Virus record (IMG/VR): IMGVR_UViG_3300037311_000008
Span: 1-42,669 of that record
Strand: one strand, 5' to 3'
Length of the DNA stretch: 42,669 nt
From: a virus
Below the pieces are notes generated by a model. The model saw nothing but the letters and a program-made list of their open reading frames with translations. It did not search any database and was not told the origin of the DNA. A program made the translations under genes and the position numbers. Shown in pieces: positions 7,518-42,669 of the stretch (the first letter of the stretch is position 1; each line of letters opens with the position of its first letter).

Positions 7518-10500
7518 GTACGAAGATTTATTGCTACAAGAGAAAGATCAATCTCTCAATCCTGCTGCTGCGCCAAAGGTCGCAGACGGTCCTTATGAGT
7601 CTGCTCTTCAGGAAGAGAGCGCAGGGCTGAAGTCGAACATCGCTCAGTCGATGGAATACGCTAGGGAGAAAGAGCCTACTCGAATGGAGAAGGCTTTGAA
7701 GATGGCTAAGGATGTCGGACTTGATGTCGGCACTGTTGAGAGAAACATGGAGACCATAGAGAAGAAGACGCGCTTTGCTGGCGTGGACTATGAGGCTATG
7801 GTTCGAGACACTCCTGGGGTCGCAAAGTTTATGGGAACTCCTGAGAATGCAGCTTTCGCTCAGAATGATATTGCATCAATGGGTCGCATTGAAAAAGCTG
7901 TCGGCTTTGTTCCAAAGCGCGACACTCCTAAGCCTATGGTCCAGTTTGGCGGAGAGATGGCTCAGGCTGGCGAGACTGGCTGGAACAATTTAAAATCAAG
8001 CATGGCTGGGCTTATGATCGCCTTTGGAAAAGGTGATAGGGATATGATTGTCGCTCAGGCTGAGATGAATAAAAGAGCCAAAGAGCTGTCTGATAAAAGA
8101 CCTGACTACTCGAAAGAGTTCAATGCTGTCATGGCCGAAGAAGGCGGAGATGTTAATAAGGCGTGGAATAAATTTAAGAACGGATTTACTCAATGGTCTG
8201 AAGGAAAGAAGCTTGAGGCTTTAAAGTCGATTGTTGTCGGAGATGTGGAAATGGTCGCAGAAGGTCTTGACCTTCTTCGCCACGCAGTCACTCGACCTAG
8301 AGGATTGACTTATTCAATTTCTGAGAACGCAGTGAATGCAGCTCCTTCTATCGGTCTTGGCGCAGCAGGCGTTCTGACTGGACCCTATGCCGTAGTAGCG
8401 ACCCCTGCTGGCGCGTTCGCTGGCAGTGCTGTCAGTGAGGTCGGTTCTGTTATCAACTCGGCCTTTGAACAGCGCGGCGTTGATATCACTGACCCAGATC
8501 AGCTTGAGGCTGCTTATAAAGACCCAGACCTAATGAAAGAAGTACGCGCTCAAGCCTTGAGAAAGGGTTTAACCACAGCAGCAGTCGATGGATTGTTCGC
8601 CGCTTTCGGCGGTCAGTTTGTTTCTAAAGCTGCAAAGGGTGCGAGTATTGCGAAGAAGACAACTGCCTTTGCTAAGGATGTGGCTGTCGAATCTGCTGGC
8701 GAAGTTGTCGGCGAGTTCTCAGGCCAGATCGCAGAACAGAAGGGCGATCTTTCTAAGGTCGATCTTGGTTCAGCCATTCAAGAAGGTATCACTTCCTTAG
8801 GTCAATCGACCATTCAGGCAGCGTCTTCAGCATCAGCCAAAAAAGCCTTTGCTGCTAGAAAGCTTTTTAATAAAGACCCGATGAAAGCAACAGATGAGCT
8901 TCTTCAAAAAACAGATCAGTCAATGGAGACTTTGCAGAATGCGGTCGCTCTTGATGAGATGGGAAAAGCCATCAAAGAAACAAAGAGTTTAAAGAATATT
9001 CCTGAAAAGATTTCTGAGCTTGTTGAAGCCGCGACTGGCGGTCAAGGCGCTGCCGCCGTTTACTTTCAGGCAGATGACTTTGATAGTTATTGGAATAAGA
9101 AGGGCGCGAACCCTTTAGAGAAAGCTGCTGAGATCATGGGAGATAACGGCAAGGCTTATCAAGAAGCGAAAGACGCTGGCGGCGTTATCGAAGTTCCGCT
9201 TGAGAAGTATGCGGCAAGCGTTGGTGTGACTGAAGACTTTGACGGCTTATTGCCAGTAACTCGCACAACTCCAGACGGAATGAGCCTTGAAGAAGCTAAG
9301 GAACACATGGCTTCTCTTCCGGGTTTAATGAAACAGATTGCAGAAGAAGCTACGCAAGTTAATCAAGAAGTGGCTCCTCAAGAGCAAGCCATTGAGCAGA
9401 AAGCTCGAGGGGTTAAAGATATAGTTCAAGAAAGGCTTGTTGCTGCTGGAAGACCTACACGCGAAGCCAAGTATGCGGCGGAGCTTGTTGAAAGATCATT
9501 TACAAATATCGGTCAGAGAATGGGATTCTCTCCTGAACAGTTCGTTGAGTTCGCAGACAAATATCTTCCTAAGATAAATCAGCCTACAAATGAAGAGCAA
9601 GTTCAAGAGCAGGAAGTCATGTTCAATCAATCAGTCAAGGCTCAATTCTATTCTAAGCTTGAATCAACTGTTGAGCAGAAGATGGGCGGAGCCGCAAGTT
9701 CTCAGCAGCTTGAAGGAATGCTCAGAGACATAAAGCCAGAAGAGATGAAGTGGTCTGGACTCGGTGACTTCTTAAAAACTAAAGAGAAATTTACAAAGCA
9801 GGAAGTTGTGGACTTCTTGCGAGCGAACGCTTTGAAGATTGAAGAAGTAACTAAAGGAGTTGAGACTCCTGCATTAACTGAGCAGGAGCAAGCGCGGCTT
9901 GATGAGCTTTACACTATAGATCAAGGAGACATGACCGACGCTCAAGTGAATGAAATGCTGATGCTTGAGAAGAAGCTTGATAGGGCTGCGCAGAATAAGC
10001 CGCGAACAAAATATGAAAAGTATAAACTTCCTGGCGGAGATAACTACAGAGAACTTCTCTTTACTCTCCCCCCAAGAGCTGTCACAACTGCCACGGCTGA
10101 AGAGATTGGCTCTATAGACACATGGGAGTTCAAAGAAAGAAAAGCTTTTAAACAGGCTCCAAAGCAAGAAGTTGAATCTAACGAAGAGTACGCAAAGGCG
10201 AAGAAGAAACTCGCGAAGGATGTTAAGAAGCAATATCCTGAGATGAAGCCGAAGGAAATCTCAAAGACTATTGATGATGTCATGGAGTCTTTCGAGATGA
10301 GAGAAGGCGAAGACATCTCTGGACTCGACACAACTCCAGAGCTAATGACTAAGTTTAAGGAGCTAAAGACTCTTTATAGATCACTTCGCAATCCATATCC
10401 AAACGAAAAGACTTATCGAAAAGATATTCGAGGAAGACGCTTTCTTTTAGTTGACACAGGTATTCCGCCGAAAGCTGGTCAAGAGTTCACTGGCGTTTAC

Positions 10501-13500
10501 TTTGGCGGAACACATAAGAATCCAAAGGGAATGCAGTTTAATACTGTCGAAGAAGCTCTCGCTTATCTTCCTGAAATGATTGCGGAAGAAGAAGCTAGAG
10601 ATAACTCAGAGAACTACAAGTCATCTCACTGGGATGAAACAAATGTTCTTGCTCATACTCGACTCACTGACCGAACAGATGCTGATGGAAACAAGGTTCT
10701 CCATATTGAAGAGATTCAATCTGACTGGCATCAAGATGGAAGAAAGAAGGGTTATCGCTCTGACTTAAAATCAAGCAAAGAAGAGATTGACCTACTTTCT
10801 GAAGAGATGAAATCTCTTGTCGAGAAATACAATCCTATGTCTCTCGACAATCCAGAGAGAAAGCCTCTAGTCGAAAAATATAAAGAACTCCAAAAAAGAA
10901 AGGGAGAGCTTGAAGAGATTGAATATAATAGTTCACGCGCAGTTCAAGATGCTCCATTCAGAAAGACGTGGCATGAGTTCGTCTTCAAGCGAATGGTTAT
11001 AGAAGCAGTAAACAAAGGCTATTCTAAAATCACATGGTCAACTGGCGAACAGAATGCAGCTTTATATTCATTGGAGAAGCAAGTCGATCATGTTGATGTT
11101 GTTTATAATAAAGACGGAACTTATGACGCTGAAGCAATGAAAGACGGCGACCCAGTTTCAAGTAAAGCGAACATCAAGCAGTCTGAACTAGAAGGATTGT
11201 TCGGAAAAGAACTTGCTCAAAAAATCATAGATAAAGAAGGCGAAGAAGACTCCGAAGGAACTTTTAGATATGAAGGCGATGATTTAAAAGTCGGCGGCGA
11301 AGGAATGAAAGGATTCTATGATAAGATTCTTGTAGACTTCGCCAATAAGTTCGGGAAGAAGTACGGCGCGAGAGTTGAAGAAATACAATTCGGAAAGCCA
11401 GATCAATTAAGAGTAACTCGCATGGGAGATAAGTACGCCATTGTCAACTCTGCTGGCAAAGTTCTTCATTCATACGGTTCAAGAGTAGCGGCTGCTGCTG
11501 CCTATGAAGAGTTATCTGGCGGCGGAGATTCAGTTAATTATTCGATGAAGGCTCATTCTCTTGAGATCACTCCAGCTCTAAGAGACGCAGCTTTAACTGA
11601 AGGCTTTGCTCTATATCAAGGCGGAGCAGACAATCCTCTAGGTCAAGTGAAGTTCGGGAAAGATGGAATCAACATTGATCTTCTTCGAGGAGCTAACCCT
11701 TCGACATTCATTCATGAGATGGGTCACGTCTATCTTGAAATGATGAAAGACCTTGCTGGAAAAGCAGAAGCTCCTGAACAAGTGAAAGAAGACTTTAAGA
11801 AGGTTCTAAATTTCCTTGGCGTTGATAGCGCAGAAAAGATCGGAGTCGAACAGCATGAGCTTTTCGCTCGCGGCTTTGAAGCATACTTGAGAGAAGGGAA
11901 AGCTCCAACAGAAGGATTGAGAAAAGCCTTTGCTAACTTTAAAGCATGGCTGATGACGGTTTATAAAACATTGACTCAGCTTCGAGTTGAACTGACTGAT
12001 GAAGTTCGCGGAGTCTTTGATAGACTTGTGGCTTCTGATGAAGAGATCGCCGAAGCTTTAAACCAAGTCACAGCAGACCTTGATCTTTCAAAGCTTGATG
12101 TTCCGACAAAGAAGCAAGAAGAACATCTTCAGGCTATCGCAGAATGGAAAGTCGCAGCCGAAGAGAATCTGACTCAGAAGTTGATGTCTGACTATGATCG
12201 CGCTCAGGCTTCTCAGTATAAAGAAAGAAGAAGCGTTGTTGAATCTCAAGTGGAGAAAGAAGCGAATCAGCTCATAGTCTACAAAGCTATTTCTCTGTTG
12301 AAAGACGGAACTCTTCCTGATGGGTCTCCGCTTCCGCAAGGAGTATCTTCATTCAAGCTTGAGCGATCTTCTATTGAGAACCTATTCTCGAAAGAAGTTG
12401 TGGCTCGCCTTCCATCAAGAACTGTTGCTCCATTAAAGTCTGGCGGCGGAGTTGATGTTAGAGTGGCAGCGTCTATGCTTGGCTTTGAAGACGCAGATCA
12501 GATGATTCAAGCTTTGTCGAACTCTATTCCGAAACAAGACTACATAAAAGCGCAGACCGATGAGCGCATGAAGAACGAATATCCTGACCTTTATGACGAT
12601 GACAGAGACCGTTTAAAAGCCGAGGCCATGAGTTATGTGCATGATGAGATGGGCGCGAAGGTCAAGAGAATGCAGCTTGAAATGATTGCAGAGAAAGCGA
12701 TGCCTGTTCTTAAAGAAGGAATCAGAAACGTAGCTCGCAGACTTCCATCAGATCGACAAGTCAAAGCTCAGGCCATGAAGATTGTTGGCTCTAAGCAAGT
12801 TCGAGATGTGAAGCCGATTGTATTTTTGAGAGCTGAAAGAAAAGCTGCGAAGGATGCTGGTATCGCTCTTGCTCGCGGAGACTTTGAAGCGGCTTATAAG
12901 TTTAAAGAGAAAGAGCTTTTCAACTTTGAGCTTTACAGAGCTTCAATCAATTTCAATAACGAATACAAGAAGCGTCTTCAGAAGGCGAAGAAGATATTCA
13001 AGTCTGATGAGAAGATGGCAAAGACTCATGACATGGATTTAATAAATGCCGCTCGCGCCATGTTCGCAGAGTATGGAATCGGGAAGCAAGGCAAGACTCC
13101 AGATGAGTTCCTAAGCAAGATGAGAAGCTATGACCCAGAGACCTATGAAATGATCTCAGGCTTGATCGAGTCTTCAATGGTTAAAGCTAACTCACTTGAG
13201 GAGATGAGTGTCGATGACTTCTTCGCCTTTACTGATGCGGCTTTCGCGGTCGTTGATCTTGCTAAGACTTCAATGGAACATATTGTTGATGGCAAGGCTT
13301 TAAACAGAGAAGATGTCATCAATGATCTTTCTAACACTCTTGGCGAGAAGACAAAATCATCTGAGCGCGTAGGCTTTGACCGCAAGGCTACAAAATGGGA
13401 AGAGACAAAGATGGCTCTTCTCGGGGTTAAGGCGCATCTCACTCGCGTTGAACAACTGACTGAAGCTCTCGGCGGAAACTTCAAGAAGATGTTCTATCAG

Positions 13501-15483
13501 CCAGTCTCTGATGCGATTGTCAATTATAAGATGAAAAGAAAAGAGAAGATTAGAAAGTGGAGAGACCTGACTCTTGAATACTCCAAAGAGCAGCCTGATG
13601 TGTTCAAAGAAAAGAATATAAAGGCGGAAGAGCTGGCTCGCACAGACGCTGATGGGGTCAAGAGATTCTACACATTCAAAACCAAAGGCGATCTTATTGG
13701 CGCACTTCTCCATGTTGGAAACGAGAGCAACAAGAAGAAGCTTCTCGCTGGTCGTAAATGGGGAACCATGAATGACGATGGAACTATCAACTCGCAAGCG
13801 TGGGATTCTTTTATCAAGAGAATGCACGACGAAGGAGTTCTTGTTAAAGCCGACTGGGATTATATACAGTCAGTCTGGGATTTAATGGAAGAGATGAAGC
13901 CAGATTCTCAGAAGGCTCATAAACAAATGTATGGATATTATTTCAGTGAGATCACAGCAGAGTCTGTCGTGACTCCGTTTGGAGCCTATCGCGGCGGCTA
14001 TGTTCCAGCAAAGGCTGACCCATTCTTATCTGAAGATGGCAGAATAAGAAACGACAAGGACGCTTTCGAGAAGCTCAATAACACATTCATGTTCCCGACA
14101 ACAGGGCGCGGCTTCACTAAGAAACGTGTTGAGCATTATGCTACGCCACTCTCGATTGATCTTAAGCTTGTTGGAAAGCACATCGACCAGTCGATGAGAT
14201 TTACATACATTGAACCAACAGTGAAATCTGTTGCTCGAATTGTTAATGACAAAGGCTTTAGAGAAACTATGTCTCTTTTTGATTCAACAATGGCTTCGGA
14301 AATTTTTATTCCTTGGCTTCAGAGAGCAGCACAGCAGAAGGTCACAACTCCAGGCTCATCTCGCGGTATGGATTTATTCTGGTCTCGCTTGAGAGCGAAT
14401 GCTGGAATGAATGCAATGTTTTTAAACGTGACGAACGCGCTCCAACAGTTCACAGGCTGGTCTATTTCTATGCTGAAGGTGTCGCCAAAGCATTTAAGAA
14501 GCGGCTTCTGGACCTATTTTAAATCTCCGAAAGCGTCGGCGAACATGGTCGCAGAGAAGTCTGCTTTCATGAAGAGCCGTCTTGATGGGGAGATGAATGA
14601 GTTAATGCAAGAAATGGATGAGCTTCTATCTGACCCGAACAAATATGACCAGTTTAAAGTCTTCGCTCAGAAGAACGCCTATATTCTGCAAAGCGGCTTT
14701 CAAAACTGTGTTGATGTGGTGACGTGGATTGGAGCCTATGACCAGTCAGTTTCACAGGGTATGGATGAGAAGACGGCAGTTCGAGAAGCTGATGCTGCTG
14801 TCAGAACAACACAAGGCTCATTGAATGCCGAGGATGTTTCTCGCTTTGAAGTCGGAACTCCGTTCTTTAGAGTGTTCTCAATGTTCTATTCATACTTTAA
14901 CAATCTCGCCAATACTCTTGCCACTGAAGGATATTATAAAGCGATCAGAGACATGGGCTTACGCAAGGGCGCAGGCAGAGCGATGTTCGTTTATATGTTT
15001 GGCTTCGCTATTCCTGCCGTGATGAGTGAAGTTATTGTGCGAGCTATGTCAGGAAAAGACTGGGATGAAGATGATGATGACGATGTTCTTGATGACTTCG
15101 CAGGCATCTTCTTTGGCTCTCAGTTTAGAACAGGAACGGCGCTTCTCCCTGTTGTCGGCACAACGGCTGCTCTGGTTTATAACCAGTTCGACGATGCTGT
15201 GTATAATGACAGACTATCAACATCTCCAGCCATCTCTTCTCTTGAGTCTGCCGTTGTTGGAAACGCGAAGACGGTTCAGGCAATTTTTGATGAAGATAAA
15301 GATGTCAGTCCTAAGAGAGCGACTAGAGACTTTTTAAGCGCCGTCGGACTCATGACAGGTATCCCAACAGGGCAGCTCGGAAAGACAACAGGTTACTTGA
15401 TAGACGTGTCTGAAGGGAAGGCTGAACCAGCAGGGCCAGTCGATGCAGTTCGAGGAGCAGTCACAGGGAAGTCGCCGCGATGA
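7504..15483 (+). CDS. Giant internal/ejected polyvalent protein (2,659 aa) with HEXXH zincin-like core and C-terminal membrane segments
   Basis: Uninterrupted 7,980-nt ORF in the T7 gp16-like position. HEMGH at nt 11713-11727 with downstream HELFARGFEAYLREGKAPT. Block HTRLTDRTDADGNKVLHIEEIQSDWHQDGRKKGY (EEIQSDWHQ at nt 10708-10734). Gly/Ala hydrophobic segments at about nt 8340-8640. Two hydrophobic helices flank DWDEDDDDDVLDDF at about nt 14960-15180. Confidence 0.85.
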   Translation: MSLNKYEDLLLQEKDQSLNPAAAPKVADGPYESALQEESAGLKSNIAQSMEYAREKEPTRMEKALKMAKDVGLDVGTVERNMETIEKKTRFAGVDYEAMVRDTPGVAKFMGTPENAAFAQNDIASMGRIEKAVGFVPKRDTPKPMVQFGGEMAQAGETGWNNLKSSMAGLMIAFGKGDRDMIVAQAEMNKRAKELSDKRPDYSKEFNAVMAEEGGDVNKAWNKFKNGFTQWSEGKKLEALKSIVVGDVEMVAEGLDLLRHAVTRPRGLTYSISENAVNAAPSIGLGAAGVLTGPYAVVATPAGAFAGSAVSEVGSVINSAFEQRGVDITDPDQLEAAYKDPDLMKEVRAQALRKGLTTAAVDGLFAAFGGQFVSKAAKGASIAKKTTAFAKDVAVESAGEVVGEFSGQIAEQKGDLSKVDLGSAIQEGITSLGQSTIQAASSASAKKAFAARKLFNKDPMKATDELLQKTDQSMETLQNAVALDEMGKAIKETKSLKNIPEKISELVEAATGGQGAAAVYFQADDFDSYWNKKGANPLEKAAEIMGDNGKAYQEAKDAGGVIEVPLEKYAASVGVTEDFDGLLPVTRTTPDGMSLEEAKEHMASLPGLMKQIAEEATQVNQEVAPQEQAIEQKARGVKDIVQERLVAAGRPTREAKYAAELVERSFTNIGQRMGFSPEQFVEFADKYLPKINQPTNEEQVQEQEVMFNQSVKAQFYSKLESTVEQKMGGAASSQQLEGMLRDIKPEEMKWSGLGDFLKTKEKFTKQEVVDFLRANALKIEEVTKGVETPALTEQEQARLDELYTIDQGDMTDAQVNEMLMLEKKLDRAAQNKPRTKYEKYKLPGGDNYRELLFTLPPRAVTTATAEEIGSIDTWEFKERKAFKQAPKQEVESNEEYAKAKKKLAKDVKKQYPEMKPKEISKTIDDVMESFEMREGEDISGLDTTPELMTKFKELKTLYRSLRNPYPNEKTYRKDIRGRRFLLVDTGIPPKAGQEFTGVYFGGTHKNPKGMQFNTVEEALAYLPEMIAEEEARDNSENYKSSHWDETNVLAHTRLTDRTDADGNKVLHIEEIQSDWHQDGRKKGYRSDLKSSKEEIDLLSEEMKSLVEKYNPMSLDNPERKPLVEKYKELQKRKGELEEIEYNSSRAVQDAPFRKTWHEFVFKRMVIEAVNKGYSKITWSTGEQNAALYSLEKQVDHVDVVYNKDGTYDAEAMKDGDPVSSKANIKQSELEGLFGKELAQKIIDKEGEEDSEGTFRYEGDDLKVGGEGMKGFYDKILVDFANKFGKKYGARVEEIQFGKPDQLRVTRMGDKYAIVNSAGKVLHSYGSRVAAAAAYEELSGGGDSVNYSMKAHSLEITPALRDAALTEGFALYQGGADNPLGQVKFGKDGINIDLLRGANPSTFIHEMGHVYLEMMKDLAGKAEAPEQVKEDFKKVLNFLGVDSAEKIGVEQHELFARGFEAYLREGKAPTEGLRKAFANFKAWLMTVYKTLTQLRVELTDEVRGVFDRLVASDEEIAEALNQVTADLDLSKLDVPTKKQEEHLQAIAEWKVAAEENLTQKLMSDYDRAQASQYKERRSVVESQVEKEANQLIVYKAISLLKDGTLPDGSPLPQGVSSFKLERSSIENLFSKEVVARLPSRTVAPLKSGGGVDVRVAASMLGFEDADQMIQALSNSIPKQDYIKAQTDERMKNEYPDLYDDDRDRLKAEAMSYVHDEMGAKVKRMQLEMIAEKAMPVLKEGIRNVARRLPSDRQVKAQAMKIVGSKQVRDVKPIVFLRAERKAAKDAGIALARGDFEAAYKFKEKELFNFELYRASINFNNEYKKRLQKAKKIFKSDEKMAKTHDMDLINAARAMFAEYGIGKQGKTPDEFLSKMRSYDPETYEMISGLIESSMVKANSLEEMSVDDFFAFTDAAFAVVDLAKTSMEHIVDGKALNREDVINDLSNTLGEKTKSSERVGFDRKATKWEETKMALLGVKAHLTRVEQLTEALGGNFKKMFYQPVSDAIVNYKMKRKEKIRKWRDLTLEYSKEQPDVFKEKNIKAEELARTDADGVKRFYTFKTKGDLIGALLHVGNESNKKKLLAGRKWGTMNDDGTINSQAWDSFIKRMHDEGVLVKADWDYIQSVWDLMEEMKPDSQKAHKQMYGYYFSEITAESVVTPFGAYRGGYVPAKADPFLSEDGRIRNDKDAFEKLNNTFMFPTTGRGFTKKRVEHYATPLSIDLKLVGKHIDQSMRFTYIEPTVKSVARIVNDKGFRETMSLFDSTMASEIFIPWLQRAAQQKVTTPGSSRGMDLFWSRLRANAGMNAMFLNVTNALQQFTGWSISMLKVSPKHLRSGFWTYFKSPKASANMVAEKSAFMKSRLDGEMNELMQEMDELLSDPNKYDQFKVFAQKNAYILQSGFQNCVDVVTWIGAYDQSVSQGMDEKTAVREADAAVRTTQGSLNAEDVSRFEVGTPFFRVFSMFYSYFNNLANTLATEGYYKAIRDMGLRKGAGRAMFVYMFGFAIPAVMSEVIVRAMSGKDWDEDDDDDVLDDFAGIFFGSQFRTGTALLPVVGTTAALVYNQFDDAVYNDRLSTSPAISSLESAVVGNAKTVQAIFDEDKDVSPKRATRDFLSAVGLMTGIPTGQLGKTTGYLIDVSEGKAEPAGPVDAVRGAVTGKSPR

Positions 15484-19911: not shown

Positions 19912-20000
19912 ATTAACCCCCATATATACATAAAAGAAAAAGAAATATAGACCGCAACAATAGCGATCAGAAGTAGTTGTGCTTTAGTATCTATCTTCAT
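19908..20000 (-). CDS. 30-aa hydrophobic micro-protein (not in ORF track)
   Basis: Hand translation of the minus strand gives MKIDTKAQLLLIAIVAVYISFSFMYIWGLI. ATGA overlaps the recT stop at its 5' end and the next gene's start at its 3' end. Confidence 0.45.
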   Translation of the reverse strand: MKIDTKAQLLLIAIVAVYISFSFMYIWGLI

Positions 20001-20935
20001 ACAGTATCTTCTCCAAGTGCGCGGTCAAGATCATTGCCTTCATCAGCATCAAAGATCGCTGGCCTGTCAATCTCTTCCTCTGGTTCAGGCTCTGGTTCTG
20101 GCGCAGCTTTAGGTGTCACATCCTTGGCTTTCACTGCGTCCTTCAGGCGAGAGCTTGTCTTCTTGGCGATAGGCTCAGCGGCTTGCTCGCTTCCTGATGT
20201 CAGTGTTGGCAGTGAAGATGCAGTCTTTGCGGCCACAACTTTCTCTTGAGGGTCTGGCATGAATAGGTCATCATCTCTTCGGATTGTTTCTTCAACATCT
20301 GTGGACATCGGAAGGCGCTTTGAAAGTCTGCGAATAGCTGTCTTCTTAAACATCTCTTCAGCAAACGGTCCACTCCAAGGGCCAGAGTCTTTAGATCGAC
20401 TCACGTTTTTAACATCAGAGACTTGCTTCTCGGTCATAACTTCAACATAGATCGCGCCGTCTTTAGTCTTAGCTAAAGCGTACACTCCGATGCGCTTCCC
20501 ACGGTCTCCGAACATATTAGGTCTATGCGAGATGTGCTCTCCATCTGCGTCTATATAATAATTAAACTCATCGTTCTCATAAACAATCTGCGATGTGATG
20601 CTTGATAGCTCGCCAGAGTTTCTGACTTTCTTCAAGATGCCGCCGACCATTGGCATATATTGAGCTTGCTTTCCGCTTTTTGAATTGAATGTCACAATGG
20701 CTGCCTCTCTTCCGTCTGGGAGTAGGCCGTCCTGTGCCGCTCTCATGCAGGCAGCAAAGACTGATGGCTTTGAGCATTCCGCAATCGCTGGAGATTGGCT
20801 GATCGCTGTGAGAAGAACGCGAGTGAACTTTTCAACTGGAATGTGTGGAGGGAGAGCTGCTTTGAATTGCGAATCCATCTTCTGAAGAGAACCTTTTAGC
20901 TCATCTACTGGACTCAGTGCTTTAGTTGTTGTCAT
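19997..20935 (-). CDS. recT: RecT-family single-strand annealing recombinase
   Basis: 312 aa. SVFAACMRAAQDGLLPDGREAAIV..YMPMVGGILKKVRNSGE..VYALAKTKDGAIYVEVMTEKQV..MFKKTAIRRLSKRLP is the typical RecT core. The tail is an acidic PEPEPEPEEE stretch. Confidence 0.85.
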   Translation of the reverse strand: MTTTKALSPVDELKGSLQKMDSQFKAALPPHIPVEKFTRVLLTAISQSPAIAECSKPSVFAACMRAAQDGLLPDGREAAIVTFNSKSGKQAQYMPMVGGILKKVRNSGELSSITSQIVYENDEFNYYIDADGEHISHRPNMFGDRGKRIGVYALAKTKDGAIYVEVMTEKQVSDVKNVSRSKDSGPWSGPFAEEMFKKTAIRRLSKRLPMSTDVEETIRRDDDLFMPDPQEKVVAAKTASSLPTLTSGSEQAAEPIAKKTSSRLKDAVKAKDVTPKAAPEPEPEPEEEIDRPAIFDADEGNDLDRALGEDTV

Positions 20936-20936
20936 A

Positions 20937-21530
20937 TTATATTCCTTTCAATGCAGATAGATCAAAGAACTTCCTGCCGTGAGTCTTAGTTCCTGCCCAT
21001 CCTTTAAAACAAATGTGTTCAAATAACATCTTCTCTCTCTTCACATCAGCAAGGCAGTAGGAAACGACCTTCGCCTTCTTTCCATTAGACCACCATTGAG
21101 GGGCAAGTTCGCCGTGGCCTGTCTTCATCTGCGCTTTGCCGAAAGTAAATTCTAAATGGTCATCAAGCTTTAAGCCTGTAGGGAATCTATCTGGCTCTTT
21201 CCAGCCGCAAGCCTTCCGAGATTCGAGAAGCATATCGTAGCAGACCATATCTTTTCTTAGCTTTGTTGTCTTTGATACCGCATCGACAAGCTTGTTGTCA
21301 AAGCCAAGGATATTAAAGCCAACGACAACGGCTGCTGTATTCATGCGAACGACAAGTTCCTCAACATCTTCCTCAAAAAAAACATGATAGTCGTCGGTCA
21401 TGTAGTCATACAGAGCGGCGACGCTTAATCCCATCTTGTCATAAGTTGACCATGTTATTTCTTTTCCATCTATCTCTTTAACAATCTCGCAGTCATAAAC
21501 TACGATGTTCTTTCCCTTTAGTTGTGACAT
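20937..21530 (-). CDS. DEDD (DnaQ-like) 3'-5' exonuclease
   Basis: 197 aa with RBS AAGGGGAAAG. Exo I is VVYDCEI, Exo II is VGFNILGFDNKLVD, and the C-terminal motif is YCLADVKRE. Confidence 0.7.
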   Translation of the reverse strand: MSQLKGKNIVVYDCEIVKEIDGKEITWSTYDKMGLSVAALYDYMTDDYHVFFEEDVEELVVRMNTAAVVVGFNILGFDNKLVDAVSKTTKLRKDMVCYDMLLESRKACGWKEPDRFPTGLKLDDHLEFTFGKAQMKTGHGELAPQWWSNGKKAKVVSYCLADVKREKMLFEHICFKGWAGTKTHGRKFFDLSALKGI

Positions 21531-21699
21531 CTTTCCCCTTCTTTGCTGGTCTTCTTATTATATTTTTGTTTCTCTTTTCGCGCTTCTCTTCCTGTCGGCA
21601 TCCATAGCAAAGCCTTGCGTATCCTGCTCCGCCTTCCATGTACTCGCCACACTGCGAGCACAGATCGCCTTCAATCATCATGTCTGCAATTTCTCCCAT
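21493..21699 (-). CDS. Zn-ribbon protein with basic tail (68 aa)
   Basis: CSQCGEYMEGGAGYARLCYGC is followed by a Lys/Arg-rich tail. It overlaps the downstream exonuclease start by 38 nt. Confidence 0.5.
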   Translation of the reverse strand: MGEIADMMIEGDLCSQCGEYMEGGAGYARLCYGCRQEEKREKRNKNIIRRPAKKGKDVTTKGKEHRSL

Positions 21700-21701
21700 A
21701 A

Positions 21702-22610
21702 CTAGCCTTTCTTTGTCTTAGACCAGTTCACTCTGAACTGTCGGAAGCTTGCTCTTGTGTATGCCTCAATAAAACTCTCTGCCGTTGTACTTGCTGTGAT
21801 CGAGAATCCTTGACCTTGAACCTTTGATGCGTCTCCGATCTTCATAAGTATCTGACTCTTGATCGCATCCTTCTGCTCCTTCGCAGACTTCTCTGCTGAC
21901 GATGCGAGCGCGTATTCATGCGCGAGAATATCAATCTCACTGTCAGCTTCAATGACCTTCCCTGGCTCCGCTTGCTTATATAGCTGAGCGATGAACTCTG
22001 CGTCTTTAATAAAGTCAGGAGTCGGCGGAGTATTAGATTCGATTCTCTTCCAGAACTCATGAGACTTTTCAAGGATGCGAGTGTGAACTTCTTCATCTGG
22101 GAATCTTTGGAGAAGGCTCACTTTATTGCCGCCAACAAGTGCGCCGATGTACGCAACACTTCTTCCGCTGACAAGAAGCTGATGCTGCACTTGCATCTCG
22201 ATATGAAGTGGAGCTTCGATCTCTCCGTTATCAACAATCCATCCGTCTCTAAAGATCAAAGCATCGACGTTTTTGATTTCTAGCAGACCATGAGGCTCCA
22301 TGAAGAAGTCAAAGCTTGAGCCGATATGAGCATCTGGGATTCTCATGTATCCGTCAAAGCGATCAACTTCAAAGCCATTGTCTTTCGCTATACCTAAAGC
22401 AATAGCATCTTGAAGCCTTGTTCCCCATTTCATTCTTTCGTTCTCTTCAAAGTCATCGACTGTTCCGGCTATCTTCTTATGGAACAACTCGAACTCTGTG
22501 GCGTATGGAGATAGGCCGAATAGAGCTGACACTTCTGTTGAAGTTATGTCCTTAGTTCTAGCCTGAAGCCACTCTGTTCTGTCTTTAACTGCAATTGATT
22601 CTCTGTTCAT
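21702..22610 (-). CDS. YqaJ / lambda-Exo-type PD-(D/E)XK recombination exonuclease
   Basis: 302 aa. The N-terminus is WLQARTKDITSTEVSALFGLSPYATEFELFHKK. Catalytic-type motifs are GSSFDF...LLEIKNV...VQHQL. Confidence 0.8.
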   Translation of the reverse strand: MNRESIAVKDRTEWLQARTKDITSTEVSALFGLSPYATEFELFHKKIAGTVDDFEENERMKWGTRLQDAIALGIAKDNGFEVDRFDGYMRIPDAHIGSSFDFFMEPHGLLEIKNVDALIFRDGWIVDNGEIEAPLHIEMQVQHQLLVSGRSVAYIGALVGGNKVSLLQRFPDEEVHTRILEKSHEFWKRIESNTPPTPDFIKDAEFIAQLYKQAEPGKVIEADSEIDILAHEYALASSAEKSAKEQKDAIKSQILMKIGDASKVQGQGFSITASTTAESFIEAYTRASFRQFRVNWSKTKKG

Positions 22611-24421: not shown

Positions 24422-24514
24422 AACTCCCCCTGTTATTAAATAGTGAATGTGCTGAATAACTTAACATCTGAAATTATTGCAAGCAGTTTGTTGTGCGTTA
24501 AAATAAAAACAATT

Positions 24515-24542
24515 TTGACTGGATGTTTTTTTTACATAACAT
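24515..24542 (+). promoter_or_regulatory. Sigma70-like rightward early promoter in the divergent control region
   Basis: TTGACT (24515-24520), a 16-nt spacer, then TAACAT (24537-24542), about 35 nt upstream of the TTG start at 24578. An AT-rich 156-nt gap separates the divergent operons. A leftward promoter is expected here but only weak candidates were seen. Confidence 0.5.
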
Positions 24543-24577: not shown

Positions 24578-24829
24578 TTGAAATTAAATCCAGCAGAATA
24601 TGTGATCGCAGCCTTTGGCGGTGTTCGTCCATTAGCAAGGCTTCTAGGTATTGCTCCTAGTGCAGTTTGTATGTGGAGAACAAAGCCTGAGCGCATGGGG
24701 ACTATACCTACTAAAAAGCATAAGCAGATTCTTGAGCACGCAAAGAAATTAAAAATAGATGTAACTCCAGAAGATTTAATTCTTGGCCGTAAAATAAAAC
24801 AAAATAAAAAAACGAAAGGCAACAAATGA
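24578..24829 (+). CDS. Cro/YdaS-like helix-turn-helix regulator
   Basis: TTG start with RBS AAAGGGGA 7 nt upstream. GGVRPLARLLGIAPSAVCMWRTK is an HTH of the Cro/YdaS type, followed by a basic tail. This is the first gene of the rightward operon. Confidence 0.65.
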   Translation: MKLNPAEYVIAAFGGVRPLARLLGIAPSAVCMWRTKPERMGTIPTKKHKQILEHAKKLKIDVTPEDLILGRKIKQNKKTKGNK

Positions 24830-25188
24830 GTGAAACAGTTTCCACTATTAAACAAGTCTCTCTTGAATCTATCGCTGACGGCGTGGCAAGTGAGCTATTC
24901 TCCTATGAGATTCAGAAGATCGCTCGCAACATTGCAGACAAGAACACAGCTCCCATTGCGGCTCGCTCTCTGACTTTGAAGTTTGACTTCAAGCCTGATG
25001 AGAGCAGAGAAGAAGTAAAAGTCACAGTGTCTGCAAAGACAAGTCTTGCTCCAGTTAAAGGATATACAAAGACAATCTTTACAGGACAGAAGGACCGCCA
25101 GCCTGCGCTTTTCTCTCACGACACTAAGCAGATTGATATGTTCACAGACAATAGTGGCATCACTCCAATGAAAGCGAGTCAACAATGA
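24826..25188 (+). CDS. Hypothetical protein (120 aa)
   Basis: Coupled by 4-nt overlaps at both ends. No motif recognised. Confidence 0.5.
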   Translation: MSETVSTIKQVSLESIADGVASELFSYEIQKIARNIADKNTAPIAARSLTLKFDFKPDESREEVKVTVSAKTSLAPVKGYTKTIFTGQKDRQPALFSHDTKQIDMFTDNSGITPMKASQQ

Positions 25189-25937
25189 TGGATAGAGAAT
25201 CAATCGAATATGTAAAGGATGTCATCGCGGCAGCCACTGAGAACCACATTCAGATTGTGGACGGCGAACACTTCTATGTAAACGGAAGCAAGGCTGAGCA
25301 AGTTTCATTCAGAGTTCCTGAGACGCTTGATCTTTTCTCGCTCACTCAAGTTGTGAACTACATTCAACTTCACATGGCGGAAGACAACGGAAAAGTCTAT
25401 GTGAATGTTAAGTTTTTCGACAAGGTCGATGTGTATTTAGAAGGACTCAATAAGAATGGGAAACGCAATCACATTGCGTCTGCTCATTTCAATGATGTCT
25501 TTAAGAAGTACAGCGATGGAACTTATCTCACTCAAGAAGAGTTCACTATTCAGATGTTGAGCCGCTTCTCTCCTGACCTTCAGCGCGATGAAGTGTTGAA
25601 GCTTGTGAACTCAATCAAAACTGGCGAAAGCATCACAACAAACGACGATGGCTTTAGTCAGAATGTTGAAGTTAAAGCTGGCGTTGCTCTTGTGAAAGAA
25701 GTTTCCCTTAAAAATAAGTGGCGACTTGTTCCATACAAAACTTTTCCAGAAGTTGAGCAGCCGTCAATCGACTACATCCTTCGCGTTCAGAAGGGAACCG
25801 ACACGCCAAGAGTCGCGCTCTTTGAATGCGACGGCGGCAGATGGCAAGTGGAGATGACTGCCAAGGTTCGCGAGTGGCTGATTCAGCAGCTTAAAGTTAA
25901 ACTCGCAGAGCGTTTTGAGTTCGTTACAGTATTATAG
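25185..25937 (+). CDS. Hypothetical protein (250 aa), possibly DUF2303-like
   Basis: Coupled to the upstream gene. Its size and position next to replication genes recall DUF2303/YfdQ-like proteins, but I cannot verify this from motifs. Confidence 0.5.
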   Translation: MMDRESIEYVKDVIAAATENHIQIVDGEHFYVNGSKAEQVSFRVPETLDLFSLTQVVNYIQLHMAEDNGKVYVNVKFFDKVDVYLEGLNKNGKRNHIASAHFNDVFKKYSDGTYLTQEEFTIQMLSRFSPDLQRDEVLKLVNSIKTGESITTNDDGFSQNVEVKAGVALVKEVSLKNKWRLVPYKTFPEVEQPSIDYILRVQKGTDTPRVALFECDGGRWQVEMTAKVREWLIQQLKVKLAERFEFVTVL

Positions 25938-26058
25938 ATAGGCCATGATTCAGGGGGAAGTTTGCTGCCCGTCCTTTAAAAACATTTCTCTCTCAACTTA
26001 GATCAACTTCTAGGAGAGAAGTGTCTTCCCTTTGAATCATTTTATTGTGGGGGAAGAG

Positions 26059-26616
26059 ATGGATGAGCAGGAAAGAAAAGCTCGCGGCAAAGCAGCCATT
26101 GAGCGATACATGAAACGGCAAGAGCCAAAGGTTCAAGGTCCGAAACGCAAGAACGAAAAGCCAGAGAAGGAAGTCGAGAAGGCTTGTCTGAAATGGATGC
26201 GTGAGCGTGGCTGGAATGTGCAGATATACGAATCAAAGGCTGTCTATTCTGAATCGGCTGGCAGATACATAAGCCAGAACATGAAGGCGGGGAACACCGA
26301 CTGCATGGGGACGCTTCCTAATGGCATCGGAGTTTATGTTGAGTTTAAAGCGAAGGGTCGCAGATCGCAGTTCGCATCTTTTAAAAACCACAGACAGCAA
26401 GAGTTCGTTCAACAGAAGATCGAAGCTGGCGGCTTTGCCTGTGTCGTTGATTCTCCTGATCTCCTTGAGTCTATCTTTGAACATTGGATGCAGCTCAGGA
26501 TGCAAGAGAACTCGCAGCTTGAACACACGTTCAAAGCTTCCAAAGAATACCTGATGAGCCAAGTGCCAAAGCGAACACGCGAAGAGTACGATGAGCCATT
26601 GTTCGGAGATGATTAA
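26059..26616 (+). CDS. VRR-NUC domain nuclease (Holliday-junction-resolvase-like)
   Basis: Start placed at the ATG at 26059 (RBS GGGGGAAG), not the TTG at 26032. EKACLKWMRERGW...GNTDCMGTLPNGIGVYVEFKAKGRRSQ...QQEFVQQKIEAGGFACVV matches the VRR-NUC D...E-x-K...Q pattern. Confidence 0.7.
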   Translation: MDEQERKARGKAAIERYMKRQEPKVQGPKRKNEKPEKEVEKACLKWMRERGWNVQIYESKAVYSESAGRYISQNMKAGNTDCMGTLPNGIGVYVEFKAKGRRSQFASFKNHRQQEFVQQKIEAGGFACVVDSPDLLESIFEHWMQLRMQENSQLEHTFKASKEYLMSQVPKRTREEYDEPLFGDD

Positions 26617-26817
26617 ATGGGCCTTTTTGTAACGCGCAGAGAGCAGGAGTCTCTCGTTCTTATTTTTGAGGGGAAGGTTATTGAGTTTCAAGTCTCTTGG
26701 ATAAAGCCTTCTTCCGTTAGCATTAAGATCGACGCTCCTCAAGAAGTGCAGATATTTAGAAAAGAATTATTGGATAGCAAAGACAAGGAGTCTTTAGGTA
26801 TGGGTGACGATGAGTGA
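26617..26817 (+). CDS. csrA: CsrA/RsmA-family RNA-binding regulator homologue
   Basis: MGLFVTRREQESLVLIFEGKVIEFQVSWIKPSSVSIKIDAPQEVQIFRKELLD aligns by eye with E. coli CsrA [48 protein letters not shown]. Shared elements are L-x-TRR, E-x-L, V-x-I-x-I/V-x-AP-x-EV-x-I/V-x-R-x-E. 66 aa against 61 aa. Confidence 0.7.
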   Translation: MGLFVTRREQESLVLIFEGKVIEFQVSWIKPSSVSIKIDAPQEVQIFRKELLDSKDKESLGMGDDE

Positions 26818-29236
26818 GATTGACTTTTCTGGGCTGGCTCACAGCCTATTATTCCGCGTTCGAGAGCTATGTGCTGAGTGGCTTCCTGGCGGCAAGGTCG
26901 TTGGCAATGAATACACTTGTGCGAATATCAATGGCGGAGAAGGTTCATCTTTTAAGGTCAATCTCAATACTGGGAAATGGGCAGACTTTGCGGCAGGACT
27001 TAAAGGCGGAGACCTTATCAGTCTCTATGCTGCGATCAAGAACACGTCGCAGATCGAGGCGGCGAAAAGCCTTCAAGGATTCGCGCAGAACAAGAACACG
27101 CAGAGCCGGAAACCAAAGGTCGAACCGAACACAGAACTCCTTTCAGTTCCGCCAGTAGGCGCAGATAAGCCTTCTTTCGATCACTTCAAGCATGGCAAGG
27201 CCACTGCCGTATGGACCTATAAAGATCAGGAAGGTTCTACACTATTCTATGTCTCGCGCCATGCAGCCGCTGATGGCAACAAAGAGTTCACTCCGCATTC
27301 ATGGTCAAAGACATCTAAGAGATGGGTCAGAAAGATGTGGCCTCGACCTCGACCTTTATATGGCCTCGAATACCTCAAAGCTAAGCCTACGTTCAACGTC
27401 ATGCTGGTCGAAGGTGAGAAGGCCGCCGACGCTGCTCGCGCTTTATGTGGCGACAACTACGTTGTTTTGAGCTGGCCTGCTGGCTCGAATGCTGTGGGCC
27501 TTGTCGATCTAACCCCGATCTATGGCCGAAAGGTTCTGCTCTGGCCGGACGATGATAAGAAGGTCTACACGCTTGATAAGAACATTGGACGCGAGAATAT
27601 CGGTCAGCCGAAGCCTGAGTATGAGCAGCCTGGTTATATGGCAATGGCTTATATTGCAGATAAGCTTGTCGATCACTGCCCAGAAGTGAAGATCATAAGG
27701 GTTTACGACTTCGATAAGCCTGATGGATGGGATGCTGCCGATGCTGTGGCTGAAGGCTGGACTTATCAGAAGTGGAAGGCGTGGGCTAAAGATCGCGTGA
27801 AGCTATGGCCGAAGAAGACTAAAGCAGTTAAGGCCGAAGTCATGCCTGAGCCGCCGCCGCATACCGATGCCGACTTTAGGGCTGAGATTGAAGTTATGGT
27901 CACAGAGCCATCGCCTGAAGTTTCTGTTGATATTCAACAGATGTGGACTGAGCTTGGCTTGTCTGTGACTAAAGGCAAAGGGGGAAAGATGGAACCCCTT
28001 TCTAATTACGACAACGTAGTTCGCGTCCTTGAACACGCTCCTGAATTCAAAGGTCATATCTGGTATGACGAATTCTATATGTCGATCATGACCGACTGGC
28101 GTGGAGAGACAAGAGTATGGCGCGAGCGCGATAGGCTTTTATTGTATCTTGCTATTCAAAGAGAGTACGGACTTTCAAAAATATCAGAGACCCAAGTGGC
28201 GACAGCCATCCAAGCGTATGCGTTTCTCGATCTTAGAAATGAACCTAAGGACTGGATGCAGTCTTTAACTTGGGATGGAACAAAGCGAGTCGATGACTTC
28301 TTGATGACTCACATGGGCTGCACACAAGAGCCAGAGTCTTATCTTAAAGCAATCAGCTCAAACTTCTGGGTCGCAATGGCTGCAAGAACCTATGAGCCTG
28401 GCTGCAAGTTTGACAACATGGTTATTCTCGAAGGCAATCAGGGCAAAGGGAAATCGACCGCGCTCAATATCATAGGTGACAAGTGGTTCACTGAAACCAA
28501 TGAAGACCCTCGAAACAAAGACTTCTATCTCGTTCTGCGCGGAGCTTTGCTTGTCGAGATTGCTGAGCTTGATTCCTTTTCAAAGGCTGAACTTAATACC
28601 GTGAAGAAAGTGATGAGCTGTCGCGAAGACAGATACCGCGCTCCGTATGGTCACTATGTTGAGAGCCATCCAAGGCGCTGCGTATTCATGGGAACAACGA
28701 ATCAGGACGACTATTTAAGAGACTCTTCAGGCGCTCGCAGGTTCTGGCCTGCAACGACTGGCGAGATCAATCTTGAGAAGATTAAGGCCGACCGCGAGCA
28801 GCTCTTTGCTGAAGCTGTGTGGAAATATAAGAACGGATTTCCATACTGGGAAGTGCCTGATGCGGAAGCTAAAGGGGTTCAAGATGAGCGATATAATGAT
28901 GACCCTTGGACTGAAATTGTTCAGACATTTTTGAGTGGAATTCGCACTATAAAATTGGACTCTATTTTGACCGATTGTCTTGAAATTGACAAAGCGCATA
29001 TAGACCATAGAGCCTCTCTTCGGTGCCGTAACATTTTGAAAAGGAGCGGTTACAAATCAAGGATTGTGCGTGTTGACAAGCTTGTTTATCGGGCATGGGA
29101 GAATATTTCTGTTGATGGAGATGACTATGAACTCAGAAAGATAAAGTCTTCGATGGGCCATCAATCTCTGCTCGCAGAACAAAATGGTCGTTTTAACAGT
29201 TACAACGGTTACAAGAGTAACAGAATAGATGAGTAA
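26804..29236 (+). CDS. Primase/helicase (P4-type N-terminus, Toprim, VirE/D5-like P-loop NTPase)
   Basis: 810 aa. NGGEGSSFKVNLNTGKWADFAAGLKGGDLISLYA is a P4-primase-like N-terminus. VMLVEGEKAADAA..WPDDD is the Toprim motif and VILEGNQGKGKST is Walker A. The start is GTG 26804 or ATG 26810, and either overlaps the csrA-like stop. Confidence 0.85.
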   Translation: MTMSEIDFSGLAHSLLFRVRELCAEWLPGGKVVGNEYTCANINGGEGSSFKVNLNTGKWADFAAGLKGGDLISLYAAIKNTSQIEAAKSLQGFAQNKNTQSRKPKVEPNTELLSVPPVGADKPSFDHFKHGKATAVWTYKDQEGSTLFYVSRHAAADGNKEFTPHSWSKTSKRWVRKMWPRPRPLYGLEYLKAKPTFNVMLVEGEKAADAARALCGDNYVVLSWPAGSNAVGLVDLTPIYGRKVLLWPDDDKKVYTLDKNIGRENIGQPKPEYEQPGYMAMAYIADKLVDHCPEVKIIRVYDFDKPDGWDAADAVAEGWTYQKWKAWAKDRVKLWPKKTKAVKAEVMPEPPPHTDADFRAEIEVMVTEPSPEVSVDIQQMWTELGLSVTKGKGGKMEPLSNYDNVVRVLEHAPEFKGHIWYDEFYMSIMTDWRGETRVWRERDRLLLYLAIQREYGLSKISETQVATAIQAYAFLDLRNEPKDWMQSLTWDGTKRVDDFLMTHMGCTQEPESYLKAISSNFWVAMAARTYEPGCKFDNMVILEGNQGKGKSTALNIIGDKWFTETNEDPRNKDFYLVLRGALLVEIAELDSFSKAELNTVKKVMSCREDRYRAPYGHYVESHPRRCVFMGTTNQDDYLRDSSGARRFWPATTGEINLEKIKADREQLFAEAVWKYKNGFPYWEVPDAEAKGVQDERYNDDPWTEIVQTFLSGIRTIKLDSILTDCLEIDKAHIDHRASLRCRNILKRSGYKSRIVRVDKLVYRAWENISVDGDDYELRKIKSSMGHQSLLAEQNGRFNSYNGYKSNRIDE

Positions 29237-42297: not shown

Positions 42298-42669
42298 GTG
42301 GCTGTTACAAACTATCCTTTAATTTCAGGCGTAGGAAACGGCGGCGGCTCATCTGGGAACTCTGTTCATCCTAACTTCGCAAGCTTTCCTGTGACTGGAA
42401 CTTCAGGCATTCTTTACATCGACACAGGACTGAACGACCTTTATCTGTGGACTGGAACTGTGTATGAGCTGCAATCTTCCACTGGCGGCGGAACATGGGG
42501 AAGTATCACAGGAACTCTCAGTTCTCAGACCGATCTTCAAACTGCGCTAAACGCAAAGGAAGATGAGCTTGATTGGAACATTAACCCAAGCAGACAGTTT
42601 CTTTACTTTACAGACTTTAATGAAGCAGATCGCGCTAACTTAAATCTTGCCACTGACTCCGCTGGCGGC
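42298..42669 (+). CDS. Tail fibre / receptor-binding protein, N-terminal part (continues at nt 112 after circular closure)
   Basis: GTG at 42298, immediately after the TAA of the upstream gene (RBS GGGGGGA). It is open to the window end, and 42559 is in frame with nt 1. Fibre-type motifs: HPNFASFPVTGTSGILYIDTGLNDLYLWTG and TGTLSSQTDLQTALNAK. Confidence 0.8.
   Translation, partial: MAVTNYPLISGVGNGGGSSGNSVHPNFASFPVTGTSGILYIDTGLNDLYLWTGTVYELQSSTGGGTWGSITGTLSSQTDLQTALNAKEDELDWNINPSRQFLYFTDFNEADRANLNLATDSAGG
42559..42669. repeat. Terminal direct repeat, copy 2 (identical to 1..111)
   Basis: Read directly; see copy 1. Confidence 0.95.

Follow-up and report, generated by a model that had tools for sequence, protein, structure and literature searches.

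A strongly diverged CsrA/RsmA family protein encoded directly before the primase gene of an uncultured podovirus

The window analysed here, a viral DNA stretch of 42,669 nucleotides (IMG/VR record IMGVR_UViG_3300037311_000008), is a complete 42.6-kb podovirus contig in which one gene codes for a CsrA/RsmA family member of strongly diverged sequence. This assignment is based on profile, structure, motif and selection evidence. The csrA-like gene is located at 26617..26817 on the + strand and is composed of an ATG start and 66 codons followed by TGA (MGLFVTRREQESLVLIFEGKVIEFQVSWIKPSSVSIKIDAPQEVQIFRKELLDSKDKESLGMGDDE). Taken as a whole, the data identify the gene product as a genuine CsrA at family level, which probably acts through GGA-directed RNA binding in the replication phase.

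With the Pfam CsrA profile PF02599, whose gathering score is 27, the 66-aa protein reaches 41.3 bits (E 1.5e-10), and its residues 3-54 are aligned on profile positions 2-50 of 53. This match, which lies above the cut-off and covers nearly the whole domain, bears out the first-pass annotation of the sequence, which had proposed a CsrA homologue aligned along its length and had named this profile search as the check. In addition, the protein matches PHROG 9500 'CsrA-like regulator' (E 1.6e-4, 22.6 bits). The eight best matches in a phmmer search of all PDB sequences are all CsrA/RsmA, each of them weak (E about 0.01-0.5) because the window protein is short and diverged.

Both conserved sequence motifs of the family are retained. 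The β1 strand carries L3-F4-V5-T6-R7-R8 (L-x-V-T-R-R) and the β5 region carries A40-P41-Q42-E43-V44-Q45-I46-F47-R48-K49-E50 (A-P-x-E-V-x-I-x-R-x-E), in which R48 is aligned with R44 of E. coli CsrA. The β1 L-x-TRR, the β5/helix motif and the R44-equivalent arginine, all previously noted by eye, are thus present. The RNA-contact residues of the family, recognised by mutagenesis and in the RsmE–RNA structure (L2, L4, R6 and R7 in β1 and V40, V42, R44 and I47 in β5 and the helix, E. coli numbering), correspond to L3, V5, R7 and R8 and to V44, I46, R48 and L51 in the window protein. No variation is seen among 21 subclade sequences at L3, R7, R48 and E50, and very little at A40 and P41. Position 42 (equivalent to E. 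coli K38) is variable and occupied by Q, H or E.

The AlphaFold2 monomer model, calculated from the 21 subclade sequences, has a mean pLDDT of 85. It contains three strands (residues 12-17, 20-30 and 33-39) and a helix (residues 49-54), with β1 and β5 extended and unpaired; together these make up the five strands and short terminal helix of the family. Unpaired outer segments are consistent with strand swapping, where a single chain of the dimer lacks its partner in the model. When the model was compared with the PDB by Foldseek, ranks 1-12 were all occupied by CsrA/RsmA/RsmE chains (probability 1.00, TM 0.57-0.79, rmsd about 2 Å), including the RsmE–RNA structure 2JPP. An NMR model of E. coli CsrA follows at rank 13 (about 0.45), and the scores collapse beyond it. 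The window protein shares its Pfam family, size and predicted fold with E. coli CsrA (1Y00), P. aeruginosa RsmA (1VPZ) and P. fluorescens RsmE (2JPP), and the β1 L-x-(L/V)-T-R-R and β5 V-x-(V/I)-x-R-x-E-(I/L) patterns of these bacterial proteins are both kept, including the R44 equivalent. It differs from them in that its sheet is longer by three residues and its C-terminal tail is acidic, in scoring less than half of the NCBIfam equivalog cut-offs, and in being phage-encoded within a replication operon.

The distance from known CsrAs is considerable. The window protein shares 35% identity with E. coli CsrA, and the three extra residues are found where 'VLIFEGKVI' stands in place of 'MIGDEV', in agreement with the earlier remark that the central strands are diverged. 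The NCBIfam CsrA equivalogs NF002469 and TIGR00202 scored 33.7 (cut-off 73) and 28.8 (cut-off 70.1), so that both failed, whereas E. coli CsrA, scored in the same run, reached 122.4 and 106.1. From its sequence alone, the protein is a family member to which functional equivalence is not assignable. Among 1.84 billion cluster representatives, only 24 proteins were found at E <= 1e-3, none of them more than 52% identical, and the three-residue excess (the 'LIFEGKVIEF' segment) is common to the relatives from this exhaustive search. The nearest database representatives P0007, P0010, P0012, P0016, P0020, P0025 and P0026 are 119-180 aa long and contain two tandem CsrA domains; such proteins might represent the CsrA dimer joined naturally into one chain. 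A tblastn search with the window CsrA against 50,697 phage records gave no match at E <= 0.01 and megablast against the same records gave nothing, nor did IMG/VR scans with primase and CsrA as queries or a first metagenome scan for relatives return any match. A second metagenome scan recovered only ordinary bacterial CsrAs, some of them adjoining FliW.

ORF 26617-26817 is a real gene under purifying selection. Copies were found in independent metagenome assemblies, four of them near-identical (97% at the amino-acid level) and one, in locus L004, 73% identical. Compared with L004, dN/dS is 0.18 for the gene as a whole and 0.12 for codons 1-40, where the two copies have diverged, and the differences at codon positions 1/2/3 amount to 14/4/26. 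The reading frame is intact in 9/9 loci having csrA. A putative Shine-Dalgarno sequence, GGAGA, can be read at 26605..26609 (+), 7 nt 5' of the csrA ATG and within the 3' end of the upstream gene; equivalent purine-rich sites are also found in L004 and in two more distant loci, L028 and L032. An antisense ORF overlapping csrA (26233-26742) is long in the window and broken in L004. The shortness of csrA and its absence from some sister phages might suggest a chance ORF or a decaying remnant without function, a reading against which stand the profile match, the low dN/dS (0.12-0.18) together with the third-position bias, the intact gene in all nine carrier loci and the lack of conservation of the antisense ORF. 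The profile match and the selection data effectively refute it already, and we assign it a negligible probability.

The similarity between the window and L004 changes abruptly within csrA. The 5' two-thirds of the gene are 68% identical, whereas the DNA of the 3' third is near-perfectly identical, and 3' of ~26735 the two loci remain ~99% identical through the primase gene. A mosaic recombination joint is thus located inside csrA, at ~26735 in the window and ~830 in L004. The gene 5' of csrA is a 194-aa nuclease candidate in the window and an unrelated gene for a 189-aa unknown protein in L004. Conservation of the csrA 3'-end DNA was also considered as a sign of a regulatory element and was rejected, since it reflects the recombination boundary and the ~99% identity runs on through the primase gene.

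The window comprises the entire contig, and an exact 111-nt terminal direct repeat (1-111 and 42559-42669) indicates a complete or circularly assembled genome. The structural module is related to those of epsilon15, phiV10 and BPP-1 and includes tail tubular and internal virion proteins; the portal is 48% identical to its counterparts in phiV10 and other epsilon15-like coliphages. The internal-virion/ejection region codes for a protein of 2,659 aa (7504-15483, +) in which an LPD22 polyvalent domain was recognised (42.8 bits). The recombination module on the - strand (19997-22610) contains a RecT-like annealing protein (PHROG 148), a RecE-like exonuclease (PHROG 434) and a weak match to an exonuclease subunit. 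No integrase or repressor was recognised in the window, which would fit either a lytic or a temperate, non-integrating phage. In addition, a Gly-rich, tail-fibre-like ORF appears to extend from about 42300 across the contig end into 124-693, and the listed ORF 124-693 is probably just its C-terminal part.

The csrA gene lies in a rightward operon. It opens with a Cro-like gene (24578), which is followed by two genes of unknown function, the candidate endonuclease gene, csrA itself and the gene for a primase/VapE helicase. The Cro-like gene (24578-24829, +) encodes 83 aa and matches PF14549 with 28.9 bits, which is below the cut-off, as well as PHROGs 409 and 35. Sigma-70-like promoter candidates, each a consensus match at 9/12 positions, are located at 24477..24542 (+), and no convincing terminator was found in 24578-29236. 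These promoter-like sites and the missing terminator suggest that csrA is probably co-transcribed with the rightward early/replication operon.

The gene preceding csrA (26059..26616, +) encodes a candidate PD-(D/E)xK-type endonuclease. Its ORF opens at TTG 26032, and ATG 26059, which follows GGGGGAAGAG, is the likelier start; the purine-rich stretch GGGGGAAGAG can pair with CUUCCC at 26023-26030 in a predicted fold (z -1.34). The first-pass annotation had identified this gene as VRR-NUC, an assignment that we do not retain, as the protein has no Pfam match (PF08774 included) at E <= 1 and none in NCBIfam or the PDB. The two indications of a candidate nuclease are a match to PHROG 93 'endonuclease' (E 8.8e-11) and a D...E-F-K (D...EFK) motif visible in the protein. 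The gene following csrA (26810..29236, +) encodes the primase/VapE-type helicase, which matches PF05272 with 232.6 bits and several primase/helicase PHROGs.

A portal protein search placed the window in a large clade of uncultured phages with genomes of about 42-44 kb, from which six sister genomes were inspected. The csrA gene is located directly before the primase gene in L001-L004, despite the unrelated upstream gene in L004. In L028 and L032 (portal 75% identical), a 77-78-aa CsrA-domain gene occupies the same place directly before the primase gene, and its stop and the primase start share the sequence GTGA. The L028/L032 CsrA is very unlike that of the window, with about 30% identity, barely alignable, and with a 7-residue insertion in another hairpin. 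Pairwise BLASTP of the window CsrA against the L028 CsrA gave no alignment, and the relationship between them is based on profile matches and a MAFFT alignment. L029, L033 and L034 possess a homologous primase and no csrA, and L030 has a different early region; the absences were confirmed by a custom CsrA HMM. In bacterial genome assemblies, where 43 relatives at greater distance were scanned, the same HMM detected no csrA within 10 kb of the portal gene. Moreover, csrA was not found beside the primase gene in the nearest isolated phages by primase, namely Ralstonia YO041_1, Acidovorax Aval and Ralstonia phiRSP. Within the clade, csrA is therefore an accessory cassette, placed before the primase gene in two lineages and absent in others.

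Other features of these early regions vary as well. The ~420-aa N-terminal half of the primase is 49% identical between the window (26810-29236) and L028 (1986-4475) or L032 (3591-6056), whereas the C-terminal module is D5_N/DUF5906 in L028 and L032 and VapE-like in the window, representing a domain swap within the clade. Near the operon start, five sister genomes carry a gene of the Acb2/Tad1-hairpin family (L028 703-1098, L029 1645-1998, L032 2285-2719, L033 1212-1451 and L034 759-1118), a family of anti-CBASS/anti-Thoeris sponges. In the window, the Cro-like gene (24578-24829) is found at about this position, and the 120-aa ORF 24826-25188 shows no similarity to the Acb2/Tad1-hairpin protein of L034. 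A scan of genomes with the primase as query, performed as a host search, gave no match. In a portal-profile scan of genomes no match exceeded 58% identity; the matches came from various MAGs and from Proteobacteria, Caldimonas and Herminiimonas among them.

The csrA gene is tightly packed between its neighbours. Its ATG at 26617 follows immediately on the TAA (26614-26616) of the upstream ORF, and its TGA (26815-26817) lies within the start of the primase gene. The primase start is best placed at ATG 26810 (MSEIDF...) and not at GTG 26804, because the primase N-terminus aligns from residue 1 with the L028 primase and because the gene caller picked the equivalent ATG in the near-identical L001. 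The two genes accordingly overlap by 8 nt, ATGAGTGA, with the primase ATG 5 nt ahead of the csrA stop. The junctions earlier described, a csrA start 1 nt after the upstream stop and a csrA stop overlapping the primase start, hold in full. Since the ATG abuts the preceding stop and the stop lies inside the primase start, csrA is probably translated in step with its neighbours.

The further proposal that csrA is translationally coupled to the primase gene stands only as far as the overlap itself. In L029 and L034, which lack csrA, the primase start overlaps the stop of a different upstream gene (ATGAGTGA or ATGA), and therefore the coupling belongs to the primase start and not to a csrA–primase link; a dedicated coupling of the two genes was rejected on this ground. 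The same observation bears on the idea that the CsrA fold has been re-used as a primase accessory, binding RNA primers or single-stranded nucleic acid. Two lineages with CsrAs that can barely be aligned both retain the position before the primase gene, and the N-terminal domain of their primases is 49% identical, which would fit such a role. However, the primase start overlaps whichever gene is upstream, csrA or not, relatives with the same VapE-type primase exist without csrA, and csrA has other contexts in other phages (after the holin gene in PTXU04, in early regions in F116 and Vibrio phages). We regard a primase accessory as highly improbable, and a regulator of translation remains the preferred reading.

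Candidate RNA targets were sought in the window itself. GGGGGA-type ribosome-binding sites precede 7/58 candidate genes on both strands; 12 of the 58 genes are preceded by AGGAG, and for 32 a GGA of some kind occurs at -20 to -4. It had been suggested that the phage CsrA may time the late genes, many of which were said to carry GGGGGA-type sites. The sites do exist, but early and late genes have them alike, and they are ordinary Shine-Dalgarno variants. The Rfam scan of the window found no family reaching its gathering score and no Csr/Rsm-type sRNA. The single GGA-dense stretch in apparently non-coding DNA (42326-42575, 9 GGA in 200 nt) was considered as a CsrB-like sponge RNA and rejected, as Rfam was empty and the stretch codes for the start of the Gly-rich ORF. 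Likewise, no FliW was found among the window proteins scanned against Pfam or PHROGs. The absence of a FliW- or CsrB-type antagonist concerns the Csr/Rsm system and not the assignment to the protein family.

Three hairpins presenting GGA in the loop are predicted near csrA, and they remain candidate sites. The first, ACUUCU-AGGAG-AGAAGU (26006..26022, +), is located in the gap before the nuclease gene, in a local fold of z -1.34. The second, GAGAG-CAGGAGU-CUCUC (26639..26655, +), falls in csrA codons 8-13 (fold z +0.85) and is not conserved in L004, which has CAAGAG there. The third, AAAGAC-AAGGA-GUCUUU (26779..26795, +), exposes its GGA in a loop of 5 nt, and 15 nt separate its end from the primase ATG. 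This structure is present in both the MFE and the centroid folds, with a z of -0.67 that is not significant. This hairpin is identical in L004, where the whole stretch is about 100% identical anyway, and absent in L028 and L032. Genome-wide, GGA-loop hairpins number 16 on the + strand and 9 on the - strand, compared with 13.7 +/- 3.3 and 8.0 +/- 3.0 in dinucleotide shuffles. An enrichment of such hairpins as CsrA targets was rejected, as their genome-wide count equals that of the shuffles and they are neither conserved nor unusually stable.

In another reading CsrA would act in cis, binding its own polycistronic mRNA and thereby setting the amounts of CsrA and primase. The sites for such dosage control would be the GGA in the csrA Shine-Dalgarno sequence and the AAGGA-loop hairpin just 5' of the primase start, which is part of the MFE fold. 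E. coli CsrA represses its own translation and provides a precedent, and the region 25938-26830 contains three GGA-loop hairpins where 0.39 are expected, a number reached in 0.6% of shuffles. This region, however, was chosen after the hairpins had been seen, and the local excess is not significant because it was picked post hoc from about 48 windows of that size. In addition, the hairpins are missing from L028 and L032 and the 5' hairpin also from L004, the fold z-scores are unremarkable, and the csrA-less sisters use an identical primase start overlap. Control in cis thus appears rather improbable, and the reading we favour has CsrA acting mainly on host mRNAs.

The following course of events would agree with these observations. 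The csrA gene would be transcribed with the early/replication operon and translated in step with its neighbours, and the product, by analogy with the family, would form an interdigitated CsrA homodimer. In each of its two RNA-binding faces, β1 of one chain would be combined with β5 and the beginning of the helix from its partner, and through these faces the dimer would recognise GGA motifs within or close to ribosome-binding sites. In this way the translation or stability of host mRNAs, mainly, and possibly also of phage mRNAs, would be altered in the replication phase. That the protein dimerises and binds RNA, which targets it has and how the phage would profit are inferences. That the window CsrA is an RNA-binding post-transcriptional regulator seems fairly likely; for any particular target our confidence is much lower.

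Mimicry or poisoning of the host Csr/Rsm network is a reasonable hypothesis, raised in the first-pass annotation and voiced for phage homologues before (PMC7366521, PMC8450108). In its antagonistic form, the phage protein would form inactive heterodimers with host CsrA or would soak up CsrB/RsmZ-type sRNAs, and so shift the host network. The binding surfaces of CsrA are built from both chains, as in the RsmE–RNA structure 2JPP, so that the sites of a heterodimer would be altered. Two observations speak against an antagonist. The 35% identity and the 3-residue insertion in the sheet make co-folding with a host chain doubtful, and the RNA-contact residues are under purifying selection although a pure poison would not need them. 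We consider antagonism very unlikely, and an active regulator better describes the window CsrA.

A specialisation in anti-defence, in which phage CsrA would mainly repress host defence mRNAs such as cas operons early in infection, deserves separate mention. In Serratia, three CRISPR-Cas systems are repressed by RsmA, which binds to cas mRNAs, and the authors of that work suggested that homologues in phages might serve as anti-CRISPR factors (PMC8450108). The position of csrA in an early operon, which in the sisters includes the Acb2/Tad1-hairpin family gene, is in line with this proposal. It would be a special case of the main explanation and not an alternative mechanism, and as the chief role of the window CsrA we hold it to be possible but unlikely.

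Phage csrA genes are already catalogued, and the window provides a further, unusually diverged example. Sobrero and Valverde (2020) reported csrA in 30/2,517 phage genomes and drew attention to its occurrence on mobile elements (PMC7366521). Campa et al. (2021) searched GenBank and IMG/VR with PF02599 and found many phage RsmA homologues, proposed to manipulate host physiology, CRISPR-Cas included (PMC8450108). In our phage collection, 88 records have a CsrA detectable by E. coli CsrA, mostly at 57-69% identity, and none of these 88 matches the window CsrA at E <= 0.01; its best match to any phage CsrA is 35% identical with an E of 5. The host-like phage CsrAs, with 57-69% identity to E. coli CsrA, look like recent host captures, and the window CsrA differs from them in this respect. 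Their genes (RsmM-type, P. aeruginosa F116 and H66; Vibrio 431E46.1 and VvAW1) are located in early or DNA-metabolism regions, like that of the window, with csrA of F116 and the Vibrio phages in early regions. The closest parallel to the arrangement in the window is found in VvAW1, where csrA overlaps the upstream exonuclease gene in a recombination module.

In sequence character, the window protein resembles the short, diverged podovirus CsrA-fold proteins represented by PHROG 9500, Escherichia PTXU04 gp28 and gp47 of Bcep22/DC1/JC1. Their genomic settings are different. In PTXU04 the gene for gp28 is on the other strand, after those for holin and endolysin. In JC1 the gene for gp47 has the portal gene on one side and the capsid gene on the other, and its product may be virion-associated, as CsrA possibly is in the Bcep22-like phages (PMC9144972). 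Pairwise BLASTP of the window CsrA against PTXU04 gp28 gave no alignment, and the likeness between them is in motifs only; as for the L028 CsrA, the relationship is based on profile matches and a MAFFT alignment. PTXU04 also encodes a 2,198-aa polyvalent protein three genes from csrA, as the window encodes its 2,659-aa LPD22 protein; this co-occurrence of csrA with a giant polyvalent protein may be coincidence. A fitness effect has been measured for one phage CsrA only, PTXU04 gp28, whose knock-down led to smaller plaques in a 2025 study (PMC11879866).

The function of phage CsrAs is almost unstudied, the sole published knock-down having revealed a plaque-size defect only. The window adds to this field a very diverged csrA lineage that is missed by ordinary BLAST against phage genomes, a natural set of csrA-positive and csrA-negative sisters with a common operon architecture, and a defined position of csrA in a replication operon, fixed ahead of the primase gene. 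As the evidence stands, the window enlarges a known theme and does not begin another. A bolder reading, which we rate as rather unlikely, is that the clade maintains its own fast-evolving csrA lineage, retained as a cassette before the primase gene in two lineages with CsrAs of about 30% identity, and freed from host sRNA/FliW control or directed to phage-specific RNA targets such as the AAGGA-loop hairpin. If this were true, csrA would be a replication-phase viral translational switch and would do more than supply an extra dose of host CsrA.
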